IMG/VR virus record: IMGVR_UViG_3300033074_000747
DNA from: an uncultured virus (IMG/VR IMGVR_UViG_3300033074_000747)
Taxonomy: Duplodnaviria; Heunggongvirae; Uroviricota; Caudoviricetes
DNA: 64,000 bases
Strand: one strand, 5' to 3'
Part shown: positions 15,709 through 63,554 of the stretch, piece by piece
Numbering within the stretch: position 1 is the stretch's first letter
Layout: each line of letters starts with the position of its first letter
Translations under genes and position numbers: made by a program
Notes under the pieces: model-generated
Told to the model about the DNA's origin: nothing
What the model saw: the letters and a program-made list of their open reading frames with translations, nothing else
Databases searched by the model: none

Positions 15709-18663
15709 TTACACCCCCAAATACTCAACTTCGACATGATTAGGTCCTGACCCAGTCACACGAAACCGAGCGTTTGCTGGAAGCAATATCTCGGACGCCC
15801 TCGCTTCCACGAATACTCCAGGAGATCCTTGTTTGGCACTAATCCTCATCTGGTATTTACCAAAGATATTGGCTACATCGCTGGATCTTGATGTGCTACA
15901 AAACTTAGCGCCTACTGTCATCTCCTCTCCAACAGATAGACTCCTTAGACTATCTATGTACGGACCCTCCAGACCCCTATACAAAGTCTCGTCTTGTGGT
16001 AGCGAATTGGAGGTGACTATATCTTGCAGAATCTTGCCTTCCTCTGTTGGCTCGCCTGTAAACACGTTAGTGTAAGTTATAGGGGCATCATTAGTGTACC
16101 TTATAACCAGTGGATGATCGTTTGCTTGTCCGTATAGTTTAGTGGTGTCTTTGGCGGATTCTACCATCCTATCGAGTGATTCTTCTGAGAAAGATCTATG
16201 ACTCCCTGTTTTGTCAAGAGCATCTTTGAGCTTTGCCAGTGACTCTTTAACCTTAGCTCCTACTGACTCCAGAACCTCTGAACTGACCCTGGATGGATCC
16301 CTACCTTTCTTCTCTTTCTTTGACAACTCCTTCAGCGCCCCCGGCCCCTTGACTATCTCCCCATCCTCACCGATTTGAACGTGGGTGCCCTTGATCGTAA
16401 TCCAATCGCCCTCCTCGGCATTATTAATTGAAGAGAACATATTGTCAACCAACGCCATAGCCTCGTACTCCCAGTCGGCCAACAGCACTGGTCGAGGATC
16501 GGTTCTCTGATTGAGGATGCTATGCGGCCGCACCGGGTCCAGGTCGATGGTGAACTCGTCGTCGTCCTCCGCGCTCGCGCGTACCGCCCGCTCGATGGAC
16601 TTGGCTCCACGTACCTGGTCATCCTCATCCTCGCCCACGTTGGCAGGAGTCCAGCTACATCTGCAGTGAGGGTGACGTGGGATGAGGCCCCTCGCCTCCT
16701 CGATCTTCAGCACTACGCCCTCCATCGCCTCACACTTAGGGCATACCTTCTCGTCGGGGGTGACGATCCACTCGACCATCACGCCGACCTCCTCCACCCC
16801 CAGGTTCTCCAGCGCGTCCAGCTGGCCCTCGGAGTGGGCACGTATCAGCTCGGTCCTTGCGATGCTCTCGGCCCGCACCCGGCTGATCCCATCCACGCTC
16901 TCCGTGATCTGACGTGCCACCTCGTCGGGGGCTGCCCCGGTCACCAGCCCCTCGCTCAGGGCGCGGAGGGTCTTGGTGCTCATCTCCTCGGTCATCCCCT
17001 CCAGGTCTACCATCGCCCTCTTGACCAGTGACTCCAGCCGCTCCCTCTGTGCCCTCTGGGCAAAGCTATCCTTGAGGAACTGCTCGCGGCTTCCCTGGTA
17101 GAAGGATGCCGGGTCGGACACCCTCACCGGCCGCCCCTTGGGTCCTGCCTTGCCAGCCTTCATCCGGGCCTGGGCCGTGTCGTCGAACGCTCGCCCAGCC
17201 CCGCGCGCGTACCCCTGGCGTATGTACTCGGCCCACACGTCAAGGTTCTCGTCGCTCAGCAGCTCCTCGTGCAGGGTCTCCCTCAGCCAACTCTCGAACC
17301 GGGCAATACGATCCGCCACGGGGAGATGAGACCAGGACACGTTAGCCGTCGGCCCCAGCTCGATCAGCGTCTTGTTCCCAACCTTGTCGGAGAAGGTAAG
17401 CCGGTCGAAGGTCAGCTCAGCCCCCTCTCCCTGCCAGCTGCCCACGTACTTCCTCCCCTCGCCCGGCCGGAGGTAGGCGACCGTGATGTGAGGCCGGTAG
17501 ACGGGGTGGGTGTCGGTGTGCTTCAGAGACCCGGAGAGTAGCTTATTCAGTCGGTAGAGGTCATCTCCTTCCACGTCCACCTTCAGCACGTCGTACATAT
17601 CACTTCCGCGCTGGGCCTGCCCCTCGTTGGCTGGGAAGAGGCTCAGCGGTCCCAGTTTGATCTTCACCGGGCCGAACCCCGACACGACCTGGCGAACCCT
17701 CTCGGCGTCGTCGGCGTGCAGGCCGTACTTTACCGTGACATGGGGGTCCGTCTCCCGTCCGTGCTTTGCCAGCTCCTCGTCGGGTATCCGGGCGGCCTCC
17801 TGGAAGATGAGGCCTGACACCGATCCCTCGGGCAGGTCGAACTGGGTGGAGCTGAACTCGAACGGCCCCTCGCGGTTCTCCAGTAGAGTGTTTGACGTAA
17901 GACCCTTATGATTAAAAACTGCATATGTGTGATCAGTCTTCTTGACACCATTTACTCCAGCTCGCGATAATGATACTTGAATATCCCTCTCTATCGGTCC
18001 ACGAACTTGAGATTTGATCGCCTTCATTTCCTCTTTAGATATTCTGCCGGCATCATAATCTGCTTCCGCATTGTCCTCAATATCGTATCTACGAGACCTA
18101 ACTTTTTTATCAACTTCATCGTACAACCTACGACCGTACTCAGAAGTCAGATCTAGTATAGAGCTTACCGGCTTGACCTCATGAACTTTACCATAACTTG
18201 ACGCACTGGTCTCATCATCGAAGAACCATGTCCCGAGATCCGACTGATTTCCGCCAGTCATGGGGCTGTCGGAGTCGCTACCCCTATATAGTCTGGGAGA
18301 CTTGATAAGCTGAGATCTATCAACCCTGACCTTGACGTCGATACCTCCATTGCCCCCCTTGGGGCTGCAACTGTTATCGCGAGCGCCCTCCCCAGGACAG
18401 AAAGCATTGAACACGCCTTGGCCCGGCTCCCGGCTCTTCAGTCCCAGAGCGTCGTCCTTCACCAGCAGGTCGAAGATCCGCATCTTGATACGCGACATCT
18501 TGGCCCGCAGCTTCTGGAGGAATACCCTGCGCATCGTGGCCGTGCGCGTGGGATCGGCCTTCAGCGGGTTTGGCCCCTTCAGCCTCTTGGCCTTGGTAGG
18601 CTTGCCCCGCTTCTTGGTGTTGGCCGAATAAAGTGCCTGACGTTTTCTCGATCGGACCTTCAT
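15709..18663 (-). CDS. MuF/gp7-family head morphogenesis protein fused to ART-like, 2H phosphoesterase and VIP2-like ART domains
   Basis: MuF: RAESIARTE...VCPKC...PRHPHCRC. 2H: PHVT/PHIT. C-terminal ART: LYRG...FCSTS...SEILL. N-terminal domain: LYRG...GTWF...SYG...YAVFN. Confidence 0.85.
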   Translation of the reverse strand: MKVRSRKRQALYSANTKKRGKPTKAKRLKGPNPLKADPTRTATMRRVFLQKLRAKMSRIKMRIFDLLVKDDALGLKSREPGQGVFNAFCPGEGARDNSCSPKGGNGGIDVKVRVDRSQLIKSPRLYRGSDSDSPMTGGNQSDLGTWFFDDETSASSYGKVHEVKPVSSILDLTSEYGRRLYDEVDKKVRSRRYDIEDNAEADYDAGRISKEEMKAIKSQVRGPIERDIQVSLSRAGVNGVKKTDHTYAVFNHKGLTSNTLLENREGPFEFSSTQFDLPEGSVSGLIFQEAARIPDEELAKHGRETDPHVTVKYGLHADDAERVRQVVSGFGPVKIKLGPLSLFPANEGQAQRGSDMYDVLKVDVEGDDLYRLNKLLSGSLKHTDTHPVYRPHITVAYLRPGEGRKYVGSWQGEGAELTFDRLTFSDKVGNKTLIELGPTANVSWSHLPVADRIARFESWLRETLHEELLSDENLDVWAEYIRQGYARGAGRAFDDTAQARMKAGKAGPKGRPVRVSDPASFYQGSREQFLKDSFAQRAQRERLESLVKRAMVDLEGMTEEMSTKTLRALSEGLVTGAAPDEVARQITESVDGISRVRAESIARTELIRAHSEGQLDALENLGVEEVGVMVEWIVTPDEKVCPKCEAMEGVVLKIEEARGLIPRHPHCRCSWTPANVGEDEDDQVRGAKSIERAVRASAEDDDEFTIDLDPVRPHSILNQRTDPRPVLLADWEYEAMALVDNMFSSINNAEEGDWITIKGTHVQIGEDGEIVKGPGALKELSKKEKKGRDPSRVSSEVLESVGAKVKESLAKLKDALDKTGSHRSFSEESLDRMVESAKDTTKLYGQANDHPLVIRYTNDAPITYTNVFTGEPTEEGKILQDIVTSNSLPQDETLYRGLEGPYIDSLRSLSVGEEMTVGAKFCSTSRSSDVANIFGKYQMRISAKQGSPGVFVEARASEILLPANARFRVTGSGPNHVEVEYLGV
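18364..18408 (-). repeat. Peptide-coding repeat NAFCPGEGARDNSCS
   Basis: Read directly; lies inside the MuF ORF. Confidence 0.95.
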
Positions 18664-48538: not shown

Positions 48539-48689
48539 GGTCCACATGCCGGATTTGAACCGGCCGGTGCTTAGATCGACCACAGCCTAAGCGCTGTGTG
48601 GTAGAAGACGACCTGTGACGCCAAAGAACAGCATCGAGGGGAAGTCATTCTCTGGTCTCGCGGGTTAGCCAATCCCCGCCCATGTGGAC
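48539..48689 (-). ncRNA. tRNA-like RNA with a long structured central insert
   Basis: GTCCACAT/ATGTGGAC 8-bp terminal stem, GCGGG/CCCGC D-like arm, GCCGG-TTCAAAT-CCGGC T arm, and ~95 nt in place of the anticodon and variable arms. Confidence 0.55.
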
Positions 48690-49077: not shown

Positions 49078-49112
49078 AGTTCGTCTCCTTCGGTCTAGAG
49101 GTTATGAAACAG

Positions 49113-49184
49113 TACTCCCGGTCGGACTCGAACCGACGACTACGGACATATAAGGCCCGCCCTCTGCCGCTGAGTTACGGGAGC
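49113..49184 (-). tRNA. tRNA-Ile (anticodon UAU)
   Basis: GCTCCCG/CGGGAGT acceptor stem, CGGGC-CTTATAT-GTCCG anticodon arm and GTCGG-TTCGAGT-CCGAC T arm; no encoded CCA. Confidence 0.75.
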
Positions 49185-49187
49185 AGG

Positions 49188-49257
49188 TTGCCGGGGTTGG
49201 ACTCGAACCAACAGTCCAGGGTGCGACCCTTCGCTCTACCAATTGGCGTACCCGGCA
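49188..49257 (-). ncRNA. tRNA-like RNA with a shortened anticodon arm
   Basis: TGCCGGG/CCCGGCA acceptor stem, AATTGGTA D loop and GTTGG-TTCGAGT-CCAAC T arm; anticodon arm is only 13 nt (AGGGT-CGC-ACCCT). Confidence 0.6.
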
Positions 49258-56836: not shown

Positions 56837-56839
56837 TTT

Positions 56840-57300
56840 GCCTCTCCCAATAAGATCTTGCTCCAGCCTTTATTTTAAGCTACCCGGTGGCCTTTTCCGT
56901 CGGTGAAACTTTTTCGCTGGCCGTGCTGTTTTCCTATTTACATACCTACCAGAATTCATTATACTACGTTTAATGACAAGGTCTGTATGTATGTAAGTAT
57001 GTATATACTTATAGTATTAAGGGATCAGCTACTTGAAAGGTAGCTAATATTCCCTACCCATCTGGTACGCCCCCTTCCGACCAACAACCCACCCCACCGG
57101 CATAAGTTACCCAGCCGAGTAAATTTTGTAGAAACCCGGTTTTTTGTGGCCCATCTAGTGACCCGCTGCCGCATATATAGGTAGGGGCAAGCAAGGCACC
57201 AGCAAAATAAAACCAAAAAAGTTACCTTCTGCCCTTTACTTTTATTAAAACAAAACTACAATAGTATTAGGTAAGGCCACTGGCCACACGCCTAACGCCC
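56840..57300. promoter_or_regulatory. AT-rich divergent control region (strand switch)
   Basis: No credible ORF; visibly AT-rich; TTTACT..TACAAT at 57235-57262; gene orientation flips here. Confidence 0.6.
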
Positions 57301-57383
57301 AAAAGTCAGTTCCTTGACAACTCGGCCTGCAAAAGCAAAAACAAGGTAGGCTGCGGCAAGATGCCGCTCAAAAGGTCACTGTA

Positions 57384-57790
57384 GCTAGTTGGTTCGGTTG
57401 GGTATCCCTCAATGGGTGGAATGGCCCTAAGCTAACTAGCCACGAGCACCAACCTGGTAACGGGTGTAGCCTGGGCCAAGTGAGTGAGTAGCAGGCAACA
57501 CAGGGGAGCCAGACGGGCATTATGGCCCGGTAGTGAGCCGGACGGAAAGCGCAAGCCGGTAAGCAGACCCCAGCCGCAAGGCAAAACTGGCCTACTCGAT
57601 TCTAGCATCAGACTGACGGTTGGGTATCCCGGCAACACCGGGTGGAATGGCCCTAACAGTCTCCGATTAACCGTAACGACTGCCCAGGGGAAGACGGGGT
57701 GAGGCACTACTAGGTTGAGTAGCAAACGGGTCAAAGTACCCGTGGGTCAGCCGGTAAGAGTCCGGCTCCGAAGAGCAAGAGCGAAACCCA
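57384..57790 (+). ncRNA. Tandem pair of structured RNA motif units
   Basis: Two copies of CGGTTGGGTATCCC-hairpin-GGGTGGAATGGCCCTAA closed by different outer stems, plus shared TGAGTAGCA and AGCCGGTAAG blocks. Confidence 0.55.
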
Positions 57791-57807
57791 ATCACAAGGA
57801 GCGAACA

Positions 57808-57978
57808 ATGAACACCCACGCAACACGGCCCTCTGGCATCGTTCCCGTGACCGTCGAGTACACGGCCCGGGGCCGCAGGGTCACCAAGACGTTCGCCGAT
57901 GCCTACGCGGCTCGGCGGTTCTACGCAGCCAAGTTCAAGGCGGGGGCCAACCCCCGAGTCGTCAAGGGTCCAATCTAA
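57808..57978 (+). CDS. Small basic early protein
   Basis: AAGGAG RBS before MNTHATR. Confidence 0.55.
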   Translation: MNTHATRPSGIVPVTVEYTARGRRVTKTFADAYAARRFYAAKFKAGANPRVVKGPI

Positions 57979-58076
57979 CCAGAGGAGTAAATCGCAGACC
58001 CACGCCGGTTCGCCCGGCGGTAATGCGGCAAGTGGGGTGGGTAGCCCCCGACGCTACTAGCACAAAGGAGCAAGTC

Positions 58077-58313: not shown

Positions 58314-58381
58314 AGCCTATCTAGCTCGCCCAGGCTGGAGGGGTGCTTAACCCCTCGCCGTCAGAGACAAAGGAGCAAACA

Positions 58382-58834
58382 ATGATCACTCGTGACTTCT
58401 TGACAGCAGGCAAGGCGGTATTCACCGTCGAGATCCCGCCCGCATTCGCAGCGGAGTTCAAGACCCCTCCGCACTACACCTACAAGATCCGCAAGAAGAA
58501 GGGCGACGCGAAGTGGGCTGACAAGTTCTTCGTCGGCCTCTTGACCGGACCAGACAATGAGGCTGACTACACATACCTCGGCGTGTTCGAGGATGGGGCA
58601 GTCCGTCTGACCGATGCAAGTAAGCTCAGCGAAGATAGCTGGCCTATCCGCATCCTTCGGCGGATCGTCGCCAAGATCTGGACCAACGAAGAGAGCAAGA
58701 TCACCGAGGCAGGCTGGGATGTCCACCACGAGGGCACTTGCTGCCGCTGCGGTCGGACCCTTACTGTACCCGAATCGGTTAAGACGGGCATCGGCCCCGA
58801 GTGCCGCAAGCACGTTGAATCAGCTGCATTCTGA
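58382..58834 (+). CDS. DUF6011-like Zn-finger protein
   Basis: CCRCGRTLTVPESVKTGIGPEC C-terminus; AAGGAG RBS. Confidence 0.75.
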   Translation: MITRDFLTAGKAVFTVEIPPAFAAEFKTPPHYTYKIRKKKGDAKWADKFFVGLLTGPDNEADYTYLGVFEDGAVRLTDASKLSEDSWPIRILRRIVAKIWTNEESKITEAGWDVHHEGTCCRCGRTLTVPESVKTGIGPECRKHVESAAF

Positions 58835-58907
58835 CCGGTCCCTCTACCACCCCAGGTGTTCGCCCGCTGGGGGACTACAGCGACCGTCCATTAGAAAGGA
58901 GCAAACC

Positions 58908-59417
58908 ATGATCGAGCTGAAACGTATCATCAAGGGGGTGTCCTACCTGTTCCGGTGGCACCCCGAGTTCTCCCACTGGGGGGTGTCCGCCGGAGAGAAG
59001 AGGACTGACCGCTTCTGGCGTCACTACGCTGTCGTGGTATCGCCCGGCGGCACGCCGATCCGATGCAGCTGCCCCGACCACTCGGAGAGGGGCCGTCGCT
59101 GCAAGCACATGCGTGAAGTGGACGAGATCAACATCTACCACCCGCAACCCCTGACCTCCGTCGAGGGTGTCTTGGAGGTGTTCGCCGAGACCGTAGGCAA
59201 GCCGCTGGCCCGGATGGCGGACCCCAGCTACTGGGCCTGCGAGGATCGTAGCAGGGCCGACACCTACGCCCCGATGGCGAACGCGGCCCGATGGTACTAC
59301 CACCGGGTGAAAACCGAGGGCAAGGACGCCAAGGCCGAGCTGGTCGAACTTCGCAAGGTAATCCGCACCGGCATCGAGGCGAACGCCATCGACCGGCTGC
59401 TTGAGAGAATCCCTTAA
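58908..59417 (+). CDS. SWIM zinc-finger protein
   Basis: CSCPD...CKH. Confidence 0.7.
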   Translation: MIELKRIIKGVSYLFRWHPEFSHWGVSAGEKRTDRFWRHYAVVVSPGGTPIRCSCPDHSERGRRCKHMREVDEINIYHPQPLTSVEGVLEVFAETVGKPLARMADPSYWACEDRSRADTYAPMANAARWYYHRVKTEGKDAKAELVELRKVIRTGIEANAIDRLLERIP

Positions 59418-59438
59418 CCTTTACGACAGGAGCGAGCA

Positions 59439-59690
59439 ATGGCAAAAATCAAAGCTACCCCCATCCGCAAGGATCTCGACGACTGGCTCAAGGACCAGTG
59501 TGGCTGGTTCTCGGAGATGGAGGCCGACGGTATGGACGTTGACCTGGCGTCCGCCGCCTGGGACATCGCGGACAGCATACTGGCGTTCCCAGACCCAGAC
59601 GCCAAGGCCGCTATCAACTATCTCCGCTCTACCGGAGTGGAAGACCTGAAGGGATGTCTGGCCGACTACCTGGCTGACGTAGCGTACTAG
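59439..59690 (+). CDS. Small acidic protein
   Basis: AGGAG RBS; rich in Asp/Glu. Confidence 0.55.
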   Translation: MAKIKATPIRKDLDDWLKDQCGWFSEMEADGMDVDLASAAWDIADSILAFPDPDAKAAINYLRSTGVEDLKGCLADYLADVAY

Positions 59691-59804
59691 GGATCATCAA
59701 TATCGCAGAGGAGGCCGGCAGCCCAGGCCGGTCTAATGCCCCCGACTCCGGGAGTGCCGGAGCGGGCCGTTCCAAGGCGGCATTATCGACTGGAGGAGCA
59801 AACG

Positions 59805-60008
59805 ATGAAAGTATGCAACCACTGCGGTGAGGAGTTCGGCGGTCGCGACGGCGAGAACGTCTGCGACACCTGCGAGCAACTGATGGACGCCCGCAAGAAA
59901 GCCAAGCTCGCCAAGCGGCGGCAGGCACGCAAGGAGCGTGACGAGGTCCTGCGCTCCGTCGGCTTGAAGAAGGTCCGAGGGGCGCTGGGTGGCACCTATT
60001 GGGAGTAG
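59805..60008 (+). CDS. Small Zn-ribbon protein
   Basis: GGAGGAG RBS; CNHC...CDTC; ends in GALGGTYWE. Confidence 0.55.
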   Translation: MKVCNHCGEEFGGRDGENVCDTCEQLMDARKKAKLAKRRQARKERDEVLRSVGLKKVRGALGGTYWE

Positions 60009-60096
60009 ACGCAGAGTGGCCCGGCCTCGCCCGCCAGGATTAATGCGGCAGGCCGGTCACAAGCCCCGGCTACCTCTAACCAACGAAAGGAGACCT

Positions 60097-60440: not shown

Positions 60441-60755
60441 ATGAAGAAGAACGAAATCAAGGTTGGCGGCCTCTACCGAGCCAAGGTCAGCGGCAAGCTG
60501 GTCACCGTTCGGGTGGACGCCATCCGGGTTCGAGACGGCTACGGGACCATGAAGGACACGACCGTGTATGACATCACCAACCTCTCCACTGGCCGCAAGA
60601 CCACCTTCAAGTCGGCCGTGAAGTTCCGCAGCGAGGTCAAGGTATCCCCGTCACAAGCCGATGATTACAAGAGGACCACTCAATATCAGATGCTCAACGA
60701 CCAGGATCGGGCCGCGATGGACGCCCAGGTCGTCCGACAAAGAGAGGAGACCTAA
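60441..60755 (+). CDS. Hypothetical protein (SH3-like beta N-terminus)
   Basis: AGGAG RBS; MKKNEIKVGGLYRAKVSG. Confidence 0.55.
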   Translation: MKKNEIKVGGLYRAKVSGKLVTVRVDAIRVRDGYGTMKDTTVYDITNLSTGRKTTFKSAVKFRSEVKVSPSQADDYKRTTQYQMLNDQDRAAMDAQVVRQREET

Positions 60756-60757
60756 CC

Positions 60758-61213
60758 ATGATCACACGAGAGCAGGCCGAGACCTGCAATGAGTTCTACC
60801 ACCTCCGTCACCGCAACCCCAACGGATCAGCGGTCAAGGCTGTACGGGACGGCCCGCTGCAAGGCTGGACCGATAGCGACGGGATATTCCACTGGCAGTT
60901 GACAGTTCGGTATCACCAGGGCTACGCCTACCAGATCGTGTCTGGGACTGCCCACGAGTGGACCACTGAGGACCCGGTGGTGTACTCTATCGTCGGCCTG
61001 AAGCACGGAGAGCCGACGGCCACGGTGCTCTACAAGACCAAGACCCTGAAGGCGGCGGCGGCGGAGTGGACCCGTCTCAACGAGCATCCCACCGAGCCGT
61101 TCGCCGCCTTTGACGAAGTGTTGATCTCCGACCCGGACGGAATGCTGCTCGTCCCCGACACGCAGGGGGTGAGTGAGTTCGGCTGGGTCTATACCAATTC
61201 CCTCTCACTGTAG
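60758..61213 (+). CDS. Hypothetical protein
   Basis: GAGGAG RBS. Confidence 0.5.
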   Translation: MITREQAETCNEFYHLRHRNPNGSAVKAVRDGPLQGWTDSDGIFHWQLTVRYHQGYAYQIVSGTAHEWTTEDPVVYSIVGLKHGEPTATVLYKTKTLKAAAAEWTRLNEHPTEPFAAFDEVLISDPDGMLLVPDTQGVSEFGWVYTNSLSL

Positions 61214-61222
61214 GAGACCGCG

Positions 61223-61477
61223 ATGAAACGAACCATAGCGTTGACGGAGGTAGACTCGCAGACCAGCCTGCTCACCCCTCGCCAAGTCGGTGAGCTACTC
61301 GGAGTCATGAACTCCAACATTGATGGCGTCAAGGGCGGGCATAATGCAGTTATTGACTGGACCAACCGCACGATACGGGTACTATCGGCAAGCAAGCCAT
61401 TGATACGAAAAGGAAAGATGGTTGTGTTGTCCGGCGGACCTGCCTTTGCCCAGGACATCGTAATTGAACTGAGCTGA
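61223..61477 (+). CDS. Hypothetical protein
   Basis: AGGAG RBS. Confidence 0.5.
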   Translation: MKRTIALTEVDSQTSLLTPRQVGELLGVMNSNIDGVKGGHNAVIDWTNRTIRVLSASKPLIRKGKMVVLSGGPAFAQDIVIELS

Positions 61478-61580
61478 CCCCTCCTCCACCGCAGCCTAGC
61501 CCACTGCGGAACAGGAGCGGCCAGTCCACTACGGACGGCGCTTGTAACCCCAGATCCCCGATAGCGGGGAAGGAGCAAAC

Positions 61581-62601: not shown

Positions 62602-63111
62602 GTGTCCTACAACTGTCAAGTGTGCCACGTCCATGTCCCTCCCCGATGCCCCCGGCGGACCTACGCCGTCCAGAGAGACCTGGGAAACCGAACGGAGATC
62701 GAGCGGGAGATCCCTGTGTGCCTAGGCTGCTCGCTACTCCTGGAGGGCGGCATCCCCCTGGCGGTCCTTCAGCGGCGCCACGGGCCGCCACCCCGACGAA
62801 CGGCACCGGCCCTACCCCCAGGGGGAGCACAGCCCCGGCGCAGGATCAAGTTCCGTCGGTACCGGGAGGACCCCAACGCCACGGTCCTGGTCGAGCCAAG
62901 ATCAGAGACCAAGGTAGTGGTTGCTTCGCCACCTGCTCCCAAGCCTGCCCCGGTGTTCTTCCAGCCCACCGTGGTGAAGAAGCCTCTCCCTGCCGATGGG
63001 CGAGAGGGTAAGAGGAAGACAGCCCCCCGATGCGAGCGGTGCCGCAAGGTGATCACCGGCCTGGTCGCTGCCGCTGGCGGCCGGGTCTGCGTTAAGTGCC
63101 AATCCAAGTGA
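62602..63111 (+). CDS. Basic Pro-rich protein with two CxxC pairs
   Basis: AGGAGG RBS; CQVC/CLGC and CERC/CVKC. Confidence 0.5.
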   Translation: MSYNCQVCHVHVPPRCPRRTYAVQRDLGNRTEIEREIPVCLGCSLLLEGGIPLAVLQRRHGPPPRRTAPALPPGGAQPRRRIKFRRYREDPNATVLVEPRSETKVVVASPPAPKPAPVFFQPTVVKKPLPADGREGKRKTAPRCERCRKVITGLVAAAGGRVCVKCQSK

Positions 63112-63202
63112 CCCCTCTATCGCGCCCTCTGATCACCCAGCGGAGGGCAACTAGAGCGGCCAGACTTTCTGACCGTGAGTTCTAATCCAAAAGAGGTGAG
63201 CT

Positions 63203-63442: not shown

Positions 63443-63554
63443 CTGACCCCTCTATCGGCCCCACCTCGCCCAGGGGTGGGGGATTAGAGCGGCCAGGCGG
63501 TATTCCAGCCTCAGTAAGATGCTGTCGACCTGACCCCTAGAGGAGTAAGCGACA

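Follow-up and report, generated by a model that had tools for sequence, protein, structure and literature searches.

Two copies of a hairpin with invariant loop strands and a type III hammerhead ahead of a small-gene operon in an uncultured Caudoviricetes contig

The 64,000 nucleotides of IMG/VR record IMGVR_UViG_3300033074_000747, an uncultured virus (Duplodnaviria; Heunggongvirae; Uroviricota; Caudoviricetes), constitute the stretch that is referred to here as the window. This stretch contains two copies of a hairpin of approximately 55 nucleotides (nt), in which all loop and stem-base nucleotides are identical between copies while the stems differ in sequence and still pair. Together with an element that belongs, by sequence, to a phage intergenic family of type III hammerhead ribozymes, the two hairpins fall within a 970-bp gap between divergent gene blocks (56837–57807), ahead of an operon of small genes on the plus strand. 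The original prediction had likewise located the element at the head of this operon. Our preferred reading, held tentatively and given somewhat less than an even chance, is that of a plus-strand leader with two recognition hairpins kept by selection, which would be severed from the mRNA by an attenuated hammerhead.

Two hairpin copies with identical loop strands

The elements of the two repeat units, of which unit 1 contains copy A and unit 2 contains copy B, are the following.

57384–57440, plus strand: hairpin copy A, outer stem P1 at 57384–57393/57431–57440, 10 bp including two G-U pairs
57610–57662, plus strand: hairpin copy B, outer stem P1 AGACUG/CAGUCU at 57610–57615/57657–57662, 6 bp
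57449–57462, plus strand: shared block CCAACC-UG-GUAACG following copy A, with the counterpart UAACC-GUAACG at 57668–57678 following copy B
57514–57529, plus strand: hairpin CGGGC-AUUAUG-GCCCG of unit 1, pairing checked by script

In copy A, P1 consists of GCUAGUUGGU and GCUAACUAGC, as verified by script, and encloses the 5′ loop strand CGGUUGGGUAU (57395–57405), the inner stem P2 (CCC/GGG, 57406–57408/57414–57416, loop UCAAU) and the 3′ loop strand UGGAAUGGCCCUAA (57417–57430). The loop strands of copy B (57617–57627 and 57643–57656) are identical to those of copy A, and its P2 is CCCGG/CCGGG (57628–57632/57638–57642, loop CAACA), the inner stem lengthening from 3 bp in copy A to 5 bp in copy B. 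A further inner helix, GGGU/GCCC with one G-U pair, is possible at 57400–57403/57424–57427 of copy A; P1, this helix and P2 add up to 17 bp in copy A and 15 bp in copy B. The original prediction had described two copies at 57395 and 57617, inner hairpins that differ and yet remain paired, and closing stems that differ and yet are complementary. All strings were recovered where it had placed them, both inner pairings were reproduced by script, and the closing stems proved to be of 10 and 6 bp in the same register.

Expressed as contiguous blocks, the 14-nt CGGTTGGGTATCCC (57395 and 57617) and the 17-nt GGGTGGAATGGCCCTAA (57414 and 57640) are 100% identical between the copies, and 31 of 31 loop and stem-base nucleotides agree. 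When up to three mismatches are allowed, the 17-mer has two matches in the window as compared to a shuffle mean of 0.15, and two or more matches were reached in 0 of 100 shuffles. The 14-mer has two exact copies only, with 10 near-matches of two to three mismatches that are at chance level (12 found, 7.4 expected). The P1 sequences of the two copies are unrelated and start in the same register, i.e., one nucleotide before CGG and directly after CUAA. For random sequence of the composition of the window, a P1 in fixed register reaches at least 6 bp with p = 0.0031 and at least 10 bp with p = 2.5e-5, giving a joint chance of approximately 0.0031 × 2.5e-5 for the two helices. The two-copy hairpin is well above chance. 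Invariant loops next to stems that have been replaced and yet pair support a folded nucleic-acid element under selection, consistent with the functional role originally proposed from conservation of structure despite sequence change. Elsewhere in the window, antisense targets of the loop strands were not found beyond chance. A pseudoknot of the 5′ loop strand with the AACC block (GGUUGG:CCAACC or CGGUUG:UAACCG) was discarded, the same lengths being reached by 684 and 554 of 2000 shuffles, respectively.

The conservation is not protein-coding, because the spacing of the blocks within the hairpin differs by 4 nt between the copies (which are 222–226 nt apart by their start positions) and because third-position G+C content (GC3) is low in the open reading frames (ORFs) of the region, amounting to 0.51–0.62 in five ORFs inside the leader as compared to 0.75–0.85 in nine genes read in frame, a tenth gene with a frame offset of one base being excluded. 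On this basis, protein-coding ORFs in the leader were rejected; the two longest, which were the two tested, were without PHROG match.

With regard to the strand, copy A folds with −23.8 kcal/mol on the plus strand (z = −2.44; reached by 4 of 200 shuffles) and with −12.5 kcal/mol on the minus strand (z = 0.11). For copy B the two strands are alike (plus −19.4 kcal/mol, z = −0.92; minus −19.1 kcal/mol, z = −1.89), so that energy alone does not assign a strand to this copy. The two G-U pairs in P1 of copy A, as well as the one in GGGU/GCCC, would be mismatches in DNA or on the other strand (C-A in the case of P1). Furthermore, the hammerhead, two twister ribozymes and all downstream genes are located on the plus strand throughout. 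Based on the G-U pairs, the fold of copy A and these plus-strand neighbors, plus-strand RNA is likely the active form.

Beyond the hairpins, the two units share GTAACG (57457/57673), TGAGTAGCA (57485/57716) and AGCCGGTAAG (57554/57749), in the same order and at the sites originally given. Other collinear blocks common to both are AACC plus GUAACG, UGAGUAGCA, a hairpin CGGG(C/U)-N6-(G/A)CCCG and CCCA..C.CAAGG. The hairpin at 57514–57529 has its unit 2 counterpart in ACGGGU-CAAAGU-ACCCGU (57726–57743), which lies immediately ahead of the hammerhead and in which one pair is changed from C-G to U-A. We read these two hairpins as homologous, though MAFFT left them unaligned to each other. Unit 1 ends with CAAGGCAAAAC, and the corresponding ribosome site of unit 2 is CAAGGAGCGAAC. 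Outside the hairpins, alignment of the units yields 88 matches, 18 mismatches and 68 gap columns, with a global score of 34 vs. 21.3 ± 5.9 (reached by 17 of 500 dinucleotide shuffles) and a local score of 40 vs. 28.2 ± 5.1 (reached by 13 of 500 shuffles). The proposed tandem duplication of approximately 220 nt therefore stands for the hairpins of about 55 nt, while the rest of the unit is only marginally above shuffles. We read the shared blocks and the alignment as traces of a probable old tandem duplication of the whole leader module, of which the hairpin alone would have been left intact, although homology beyond the hairpins has weak statistical support.

A check against Rfam had been suggested along with the original prediction, and the hairpins indeed match no family of Rfam 15. 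Nothing was retrieved for them at E ≤ 10 in a search with 1.1 kb, and searches with 80–90 nt returned best rows that are unrelated and differ between the copies (copy A, MS2 operator with 11.3 bits on the minus strand and bxd_4 with 10.1 bits; copy B, eL15 leader with 12.6 bits). Twister and twister-sister models gave no match on the hairpins in searches that found the twister-P5 element at 57993–58049, and the likeness of CGGTTGGGTATCCC to GGGGTGGGTAGCCC of twister (11 of 14 positions) is at chance level by estimate. Likewise, blastn of 57040–57810 against 50,697 GenBank phage records did not produce a match.

Pattern scans were evaluated with R1, a covariance model of the two hairpin copies that scores 68–76 bits in the window. 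In IMG/VR, the full hairpin motif was matched by 0 stretches in an exact-pattern scan, TTGGGTAT..TGGAATGGCCC by five stretches, none with the stems and one (L029) inside a 451-aa ORF, GGGTAT..TGGAATGGCCCTAA by 0, and CGGTTGGGTAT..TGGAATG by 18 stretches of which 0 score with R1. Two stretches from JGI metagenomes and two from GTDB genomes are all without P1 and P2 and score about 15–23 bits. Overall, the stray matches in these three collections reach about 13–23 bits or nothing with R1. The model found 0 matches in 38 loci containing the hammerhead described below. For the 28 loci that were fetched first, around IMG/VR relatives of the PD-(D/E)XK nuclease of the window (26–48% identity), a fuzzy regular expression returned nothing convincing; a search of nine of them against Rfam gave only a tRNA and no twister.

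Contigs of other sequencing runs were also compared. All eight contig pieces from run X2 are at least 99% alike to the window and cover both hairpins; X2, which comes from the same study as the likely source, is not independent of the window. Contigs of runs X3, X6 and X7 cover 58900–60059 and, in addition, short pieces at 57744–57801 (hammerhead) and 58016–58059 (twister), the flanks of which are unlike the window. The hairpins are not covered by these contigs, which does not count as evidence that they are absent there. One X3 contig joins 57592 to 57722 and skips copy B, the shorter side being a match of 28 letters with 80% likeness, as often stems from a repeat or another organism. Judged from these searches, the hairpin is uncatalogued in Rfam 15 and so far seen in this contig alone.

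A hammerhead family ahead of the first gene

The second copy is followed by a hammerhead and the initiation region of the first early gene.

57740–57792, plus strand: type III hammerhead with a core variant, full-length match to model R2 (66.0 bits, E 1.3e-18)
57796–57810, plus strand: Shine-Dalgarno sequence AAGGAG (57796–57801) and ATG (57808) of the first early gene

No known family had been recognized anywhere in the region by the original prediction, a statement that fails for 57740–57792. Model R2, derived from 24 distinct phage sequences (53-mers) with the window excluded, identifies this segment as a type III hammerhead; the next best match in the window reaches 9.4 bits. Stem III is open and formed by UGGGU/ACCCA (57743–57747/57786–57790, 5 bp), stem I by AGCCGG/CCGGCU (57749–57754/57762–57767, 6 bp, loop UAAGAGU) and stem II by GC/GC (2 bp, loop AAGA, 57775–57782). 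The block AGCCGGTAAG, previously listed as a shared string at 57749, is stem I of the hammerhead. The cleavage triplet is GUC, with a predicted cut between C57748 and A57749; GAAA occupies 57783–57786, and U57747 pairs with A57786 as the A15.1-U16.1 pair. The core reads CCGAAGA (57768–57774) vs. CUGAUGA in the family, i.e., with U4C at 57769 and U7A at 57772. The consensus core C3 U4 G5 A6 N7 G8 A9 is not matched, position 4 being C and position 7 being free. The hammerhead lies 6 nt ahead of the AAGGAG of the first gene.

Short pieces of 57744–57801 recur in contigs of three other sequencing runs, where their flanks are unlike those in the window. In IMG/VR, the stem word GCCGGTAAGAGTCCGGC was found in 10 stretches, with CUGAUGAG...GAAAC following it in seven of them but not in the other three, and a scan with CTGATGAGCAAGAGCGAAAC retrieved 38 stretches with 39 matches, comprising 31 distinct 95-mers and 24 distinct 53-mers. 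When the 24 sequences are aligned, the type III structure pairs in 94% of cells as compared to 24–44% in slid controls. Eight of 14 pairs are changed on both sides, a covariation score reached by 0 of 500 shuffles. In the 31 distinct family sequences the hammerhead mostly lies a short distance ahead of a ribosome site and start codon, as it does in the window, and the window element is nearly letter for letter the same as the family except for the two core positions. As a separate observation, the subfamily in IMG/VR loci L048–L085 has a fixed core plus stem II word, CUGAUGAGCAAGAGCGAAAC, in 38 stretches, and its sequences mostly show a G+C-rich hairpin upstream of the hammerhead and a ribosome site downstream.

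In Rfam, no hammerhead row was obtained for 57740–57792 even at E ≤ 10, and Rfam 15 at gathering score left the canonical relatives uncalled in six of six loci scanned. The Rfam hammerhead models seem blind to the subfamily with short stem II because these six loci of canonical relatives are uncalled as well. Unit 1 is without hammerhead (best score 4.5 bits with filters off), and a second hammerhead in this unit was rejected on this score.

Gene-flanking type III hammerheads of phages and prophages resemble 57740–57792 in the three stems, the GUC triplet, GAAA, the A15.1-U16.1 pair and the 2-bp stem II, and stems II of two base pairs are common among hammerheads (PMC3088659). Those of prophages flank genes and may process long transcripts (PMC3088659). 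The window differs from these by a core that is CCGAAGA and not CUGAUGA, and the likeness covers only the last quarter of the region. The U4C exchange “considerably decreases activity in vitro” yet allows viroid infectivity (PMC3088659); by analogy, the core change probably slows cutting here. The hammerhead adds a new member, off-consensus in its core, to a known family. The combination of a structured leader with ribozymes between small early genes is an arrangement known in kind (PMC3088659).

Possible functions of the hairpins

According to the reading that we prefer, the rightward operon of small (early) genes would begin with an untranslated plus-strand leader at 57270–57807. The hairpins would be two recognition modules on this RNA, with invariant strands CGGUUGGGUAU and UGGAAUGGCCCUAA of an asymmetric internal loop and with stems whose sequence may vary provided that pairing is kept. 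The partner would most likely be a protein, i.e., a phage or host factor, perhaps a nuclease or one that regulates the early transcript, that reads loop nucleotides presented by the helices. The hammerhead would cut at C57748/A57749 and detach a leader of approximately 480 nt, ending in the hairpin at 57726–57743, from the first cistron. With U4C probably slowing the reaction, part of the transcripts may keep the leader. Historically, a module of hairpin, hammerhead and ribosome site may have been duplicated in tandem, after which the upstream copy would have lost hammerhead and ribosome site and kept the hairpin letter for letter. Loss of these two elements from unit 1 with the hairpin untouched would point to selection on the hairpin itself.

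Among known systems, the put RNAs of phage HK022, which are antiterminators that modify the transcribing polymerase in cis and occur twice per genome, come close in that two folded copies are located past early promoters, with structure kept and stems differing. In contrast to the situation here, where both copies reside in one leader, the put copies belong to two operons and have two stem-loops each. Moreover, put RNA needs a tether, and the downstream ribozyme would cut this tether.

A number of points weigh against the preferred reading. Nothing points to any particular protein partner, and the invariant loop of 25 nt exceeds most known protein operators, so that a ribozyme or an aptamer would fit equally. 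Copy B folds on the minus strand as well as on the plus strand, the two whole units and the whole leader do not fold more stably than their shuffles (z = 0.31, −0.16 and 0.03), and the minimum-energy fold of the whole leader does not form copy B. The hammerhead may not cut, because it is off-consensus at the conserved U4 and uncalled by Rfam. The candidate promoter at 57235–57262, from which the leader would be transcribed, is a consensus match only. With R1, the 28 loci around the nuclease relatives gave 15.3 bits at best (E ~1), and the hairpin was found in 0 of 5 complete or near-complete related phage records. If functional, it would therefore be lineage-specific. The covariation comes from two copies in one genome, and as no hairpin homologue was found, it has no independent counterpart.

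That the hairpin represents a new class of small self-cleaving ribozyme, which would cut at each copy and release a unit RNA of 222–226 nt, is in our view unlikely. The same transcript would carry three known self-cleaving motifs, namely the hammerhead and two twisters, the hairpin fits no Rfam family, and a size of approximately 55 nt together with about 25 invariant internal-loop nucleotides and free stems is closer to what is seen in small ribozymes than in protein operators. The twister-sister, pistol and hatchet classes were found by looking near known ribozymes. However, real ribozyme classes are usually widespread, and homologues were found neither in IMG/VR nor in JGI metagenomes or GTDB. 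In addition, the hairpin is situated within the leader and not in the slot after a stop codon that twisters use, and its proposed pseudoknot partner is at chance level.

Little probability also attaches to processing signals for a host ribonuclease, of the kind known from T7, where RNase III sites, about two helical turns of duplex broken by an internal loop, shorten the leader of the early transcript and divide it into its cistrons. The T7 early RNA has a long untranslated leader that is severed from the first cistron at an RNase III site before gene 0.3, and hairpins with internal loops are repeated along one polycistronic RNA. A similar layout would be present here, with two helical segments and an asymmetric internal loop, repeated on one early transcript of an operon clearly built for RNA processing. 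Nevertheless, helices of 13–19 bp in total are short for RNase III, and this enzyme needs little sequence, which leaves the perfect conservation of approximately 25 loop nucleotides, a feature in which T7 differs, unexplained. Intergenic processing in this operon would be carried out by ribozymes instead of a host enzyme, and a sequence relationship with T7 does not exist.

An action as DNA, with two composite sites of 31 bp serving as protein-binding sites or as single-strand hairpins of a replication origin or control region, is improbable. The location between divergent operons, beside the A+T-rich stretch 57200–57260 and with replication genes in the leftward operon, would suit such a role, as would the equal folding of copy B on either strand. 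A binding site, on the other hand, does not need flanks that differ and are yet complementary. In DNA or on the opposite strand, copy A would have mismatches in place of its two G-U pairs, two copies at a spacing of 222–226 bp are unlike iterons, and the neighboring elements are all RNA motifs of the plus strand.

It is similarly improbable that the second copy is a decaying tandem duplication without function, the loops of which are identical by gene conversion or chance. This would be compatible with the lack of homologues in any collection searched, with the visible decay of unit 1, which is without hammerhead, and with the unremarkable folding energies of whole units. Gene conversion, however, would not leave P1 strands replaced and yet complementary next to 31 identical positions, and no loop nucleotide was touched by the decay in which the hammerhead was lost.

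Tandem small-molecule riboswitch aptamers, which would regulate the operon or else decide whether the hammerhead folds, are very unlikely: invariant loop nucleotides, free stems and two similar bulged-hairpin domains in one 5′ leader recall the glycine and NAD+-I riboswitches, the Rfam models of which were included in the scans, and GGUUGGG (57618–57624) pairs with CCCAAUC (57787–57793) over seven positions (six Watson-Crick, one G-U) in competition with the 5-bp stem III of the hammerhead, a long-range helix that RNAalifold proposed for both units, but shuffles show that helices as long as this one often arise by chance where G+C content is so high, the copies are approximately 170 nt apart with no gene following copy A, neither copy has a terminator or a platform sequestering the ribosome-binding site beside it (no terminator-like site on the plus strand between 57384 and 57808), and riboswitch classes normally occur in many genomes whereas this hairpin, unmatched in Rfam at E ≤ 10, was found in no other.

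Genomic setting and further RNA elements

The window is a phage-like contig with a G+C content of approximately 60%. As far as 56836, the large ORFs lie almost without exception on the minus strand; among them are portal, a MuF fusion, DNA polymerase A, PD-(D/E)XK nuclease and AAA_24 ATPase as well as UDG, thymidylate synthase and a primase/helicase (817-aa ORF). The replication genes lie in the leftward operon. From 57808 to the window end, small genes without family follow on the plus strand. A close cultured phage was not found, polymerase identity in tblastn searches being at best approximately 25–29%, and a viral scan did not find a relative of the 267-aa early ORF. The first early gene (57808–57978) encodes 56 aa with a GC3 of 0.81 and is without Pfam or PHROG match. 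An initiation block, AAGGAGC(A/G)AAC(A/C)ATGA, is near-identical at 57796–57815, 58370–58389 and 58896–58915 (also 60734–60771), before several early genes. Its recurrence places the true start of the ORF listed as 58614–59417 at 58908 and that of the ORF listed as 58343–58834 at 58382. Further elements are listed below.

57235–57262, plus strand: candidate sigma-70-type promoter, TTTACT-16-TACAAT, 9 of 12 consensus positions
57993–58049, plus strand: twister-P5-like ribozyme separating the first gene from the second, with 37.2 bits slightly short of the gathering score (37.6; E 6.8e-6 in the 1.1-kb search)
60010–60069, plus strand: twister-P5 ribozyme separating another pair of early genes, with 42.2 bits exceeding the gathering score (37.6)
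61475–61524, 63109–63163 and 63444–63496, plus strand: three copies of a second orphan RNA module, each beginning at the TGA that terminates a small gene

The candidate promoter could start the leader near 57270. Two promoter-like sites are present in the 1.5-kb region vs. 0.8 ± 0.8 in shuffles, and the site at 57235–57262 is not significant alone. Promoters for a phage RNA polymerase were rejected, as no gene for such an enzyme is present among the large ORFs tested and the 817-aa ORF is the primase/helicase. A+T-rich strings ATAGTATTA(A)GG occur on the plus strand at 57011–57023 and 57259–57272, approximately 250 bp apart in the divergent gap, each near a promoter-like match (56937–56965 and 57235–57262, respectively), and may mark tandem rightward promoters.

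In one of the two twisters the pseudoknot strands are apparently swapped (CCC...GGG vs. GGG...CCC in the consensus). The second orphan module occupies the slot used by twisters elsewhere in the operon. Its flanks UGACCCCUC and GAGCGGCCAG are invariant, and its stems covary among the three copies, the outer stem being CUCCU/AGGAG or CUCUA/UAGAG and the inner one CCGCAG/CUGCGG, GCCCUC/GAGGGC or CCCCACC/GGUGGGG, with a loop that always contains CCCA. The pattern has three matches in the window and 0 in 100 shuffles, and it was not found in any of 103 loci fetched.

Outside the early operon, a 984-aa protein encoded at 15709–18663 (minus strand) combines a phage Mu F-like head domain with a 2′,5′ RNA ligase/2H-phosphoesterase domain. 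Enzymes of this fold act on 2′,3′-cyclic phosphate ends and cyclic nucleotide signals. One might speculate about a link between this protein and the 2′,3′-cyclic phosphate ends that ribozyme cleavage in this phage would leave. On the minus strand at 49112–49257, genes for tRNA-Ile(UAU) and tRNA-Ala(CGC) lie next to each other, and the latter has a shortened anticodon-loop region in the Rfam alignment and a lower score (40.2 bits). A third tRNA considered at 48548–48564 was rejected, as there is none at this site.

That ribozymes punctuate phage operons has been recognized since 2011, and a further hammerhead is nothing unusual. What distinguishes the present case is that a hammerhead, two twisters and two uncatalogued folded modules, in two and three copies, respectively, come together on one putative early transcript. 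Both of these modules have invariant single-stranded nucleotides and stems that are changed yet paired. Apart from this, the Rfam hammerhead models seem to miss a phage subfamily with a stem II of 2 bp, of which a single 20-nt word recovered 38 IMG/VR stretches. The finding is a moderately interesting lead for new RNA classes, held back by the fact that no hairpin homologue was found. There is a small chance that the hairpin, and perhaps also the orphan module at 61475, 63109 and 63444, constitutes a new catalytic or ligand-sensing RNA class. In that event, the hairpin would be either a new self-cleaving ribozyme releasing a leader RNA of unit length or a sensor gating the adjacent hammerhead, i.e., a natural allosteric ribozyme. 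Neighborhoods of this kind have yielded new ribozyme classes before, and with a few hundred nucleotides the region offers a compact and directly testable system.

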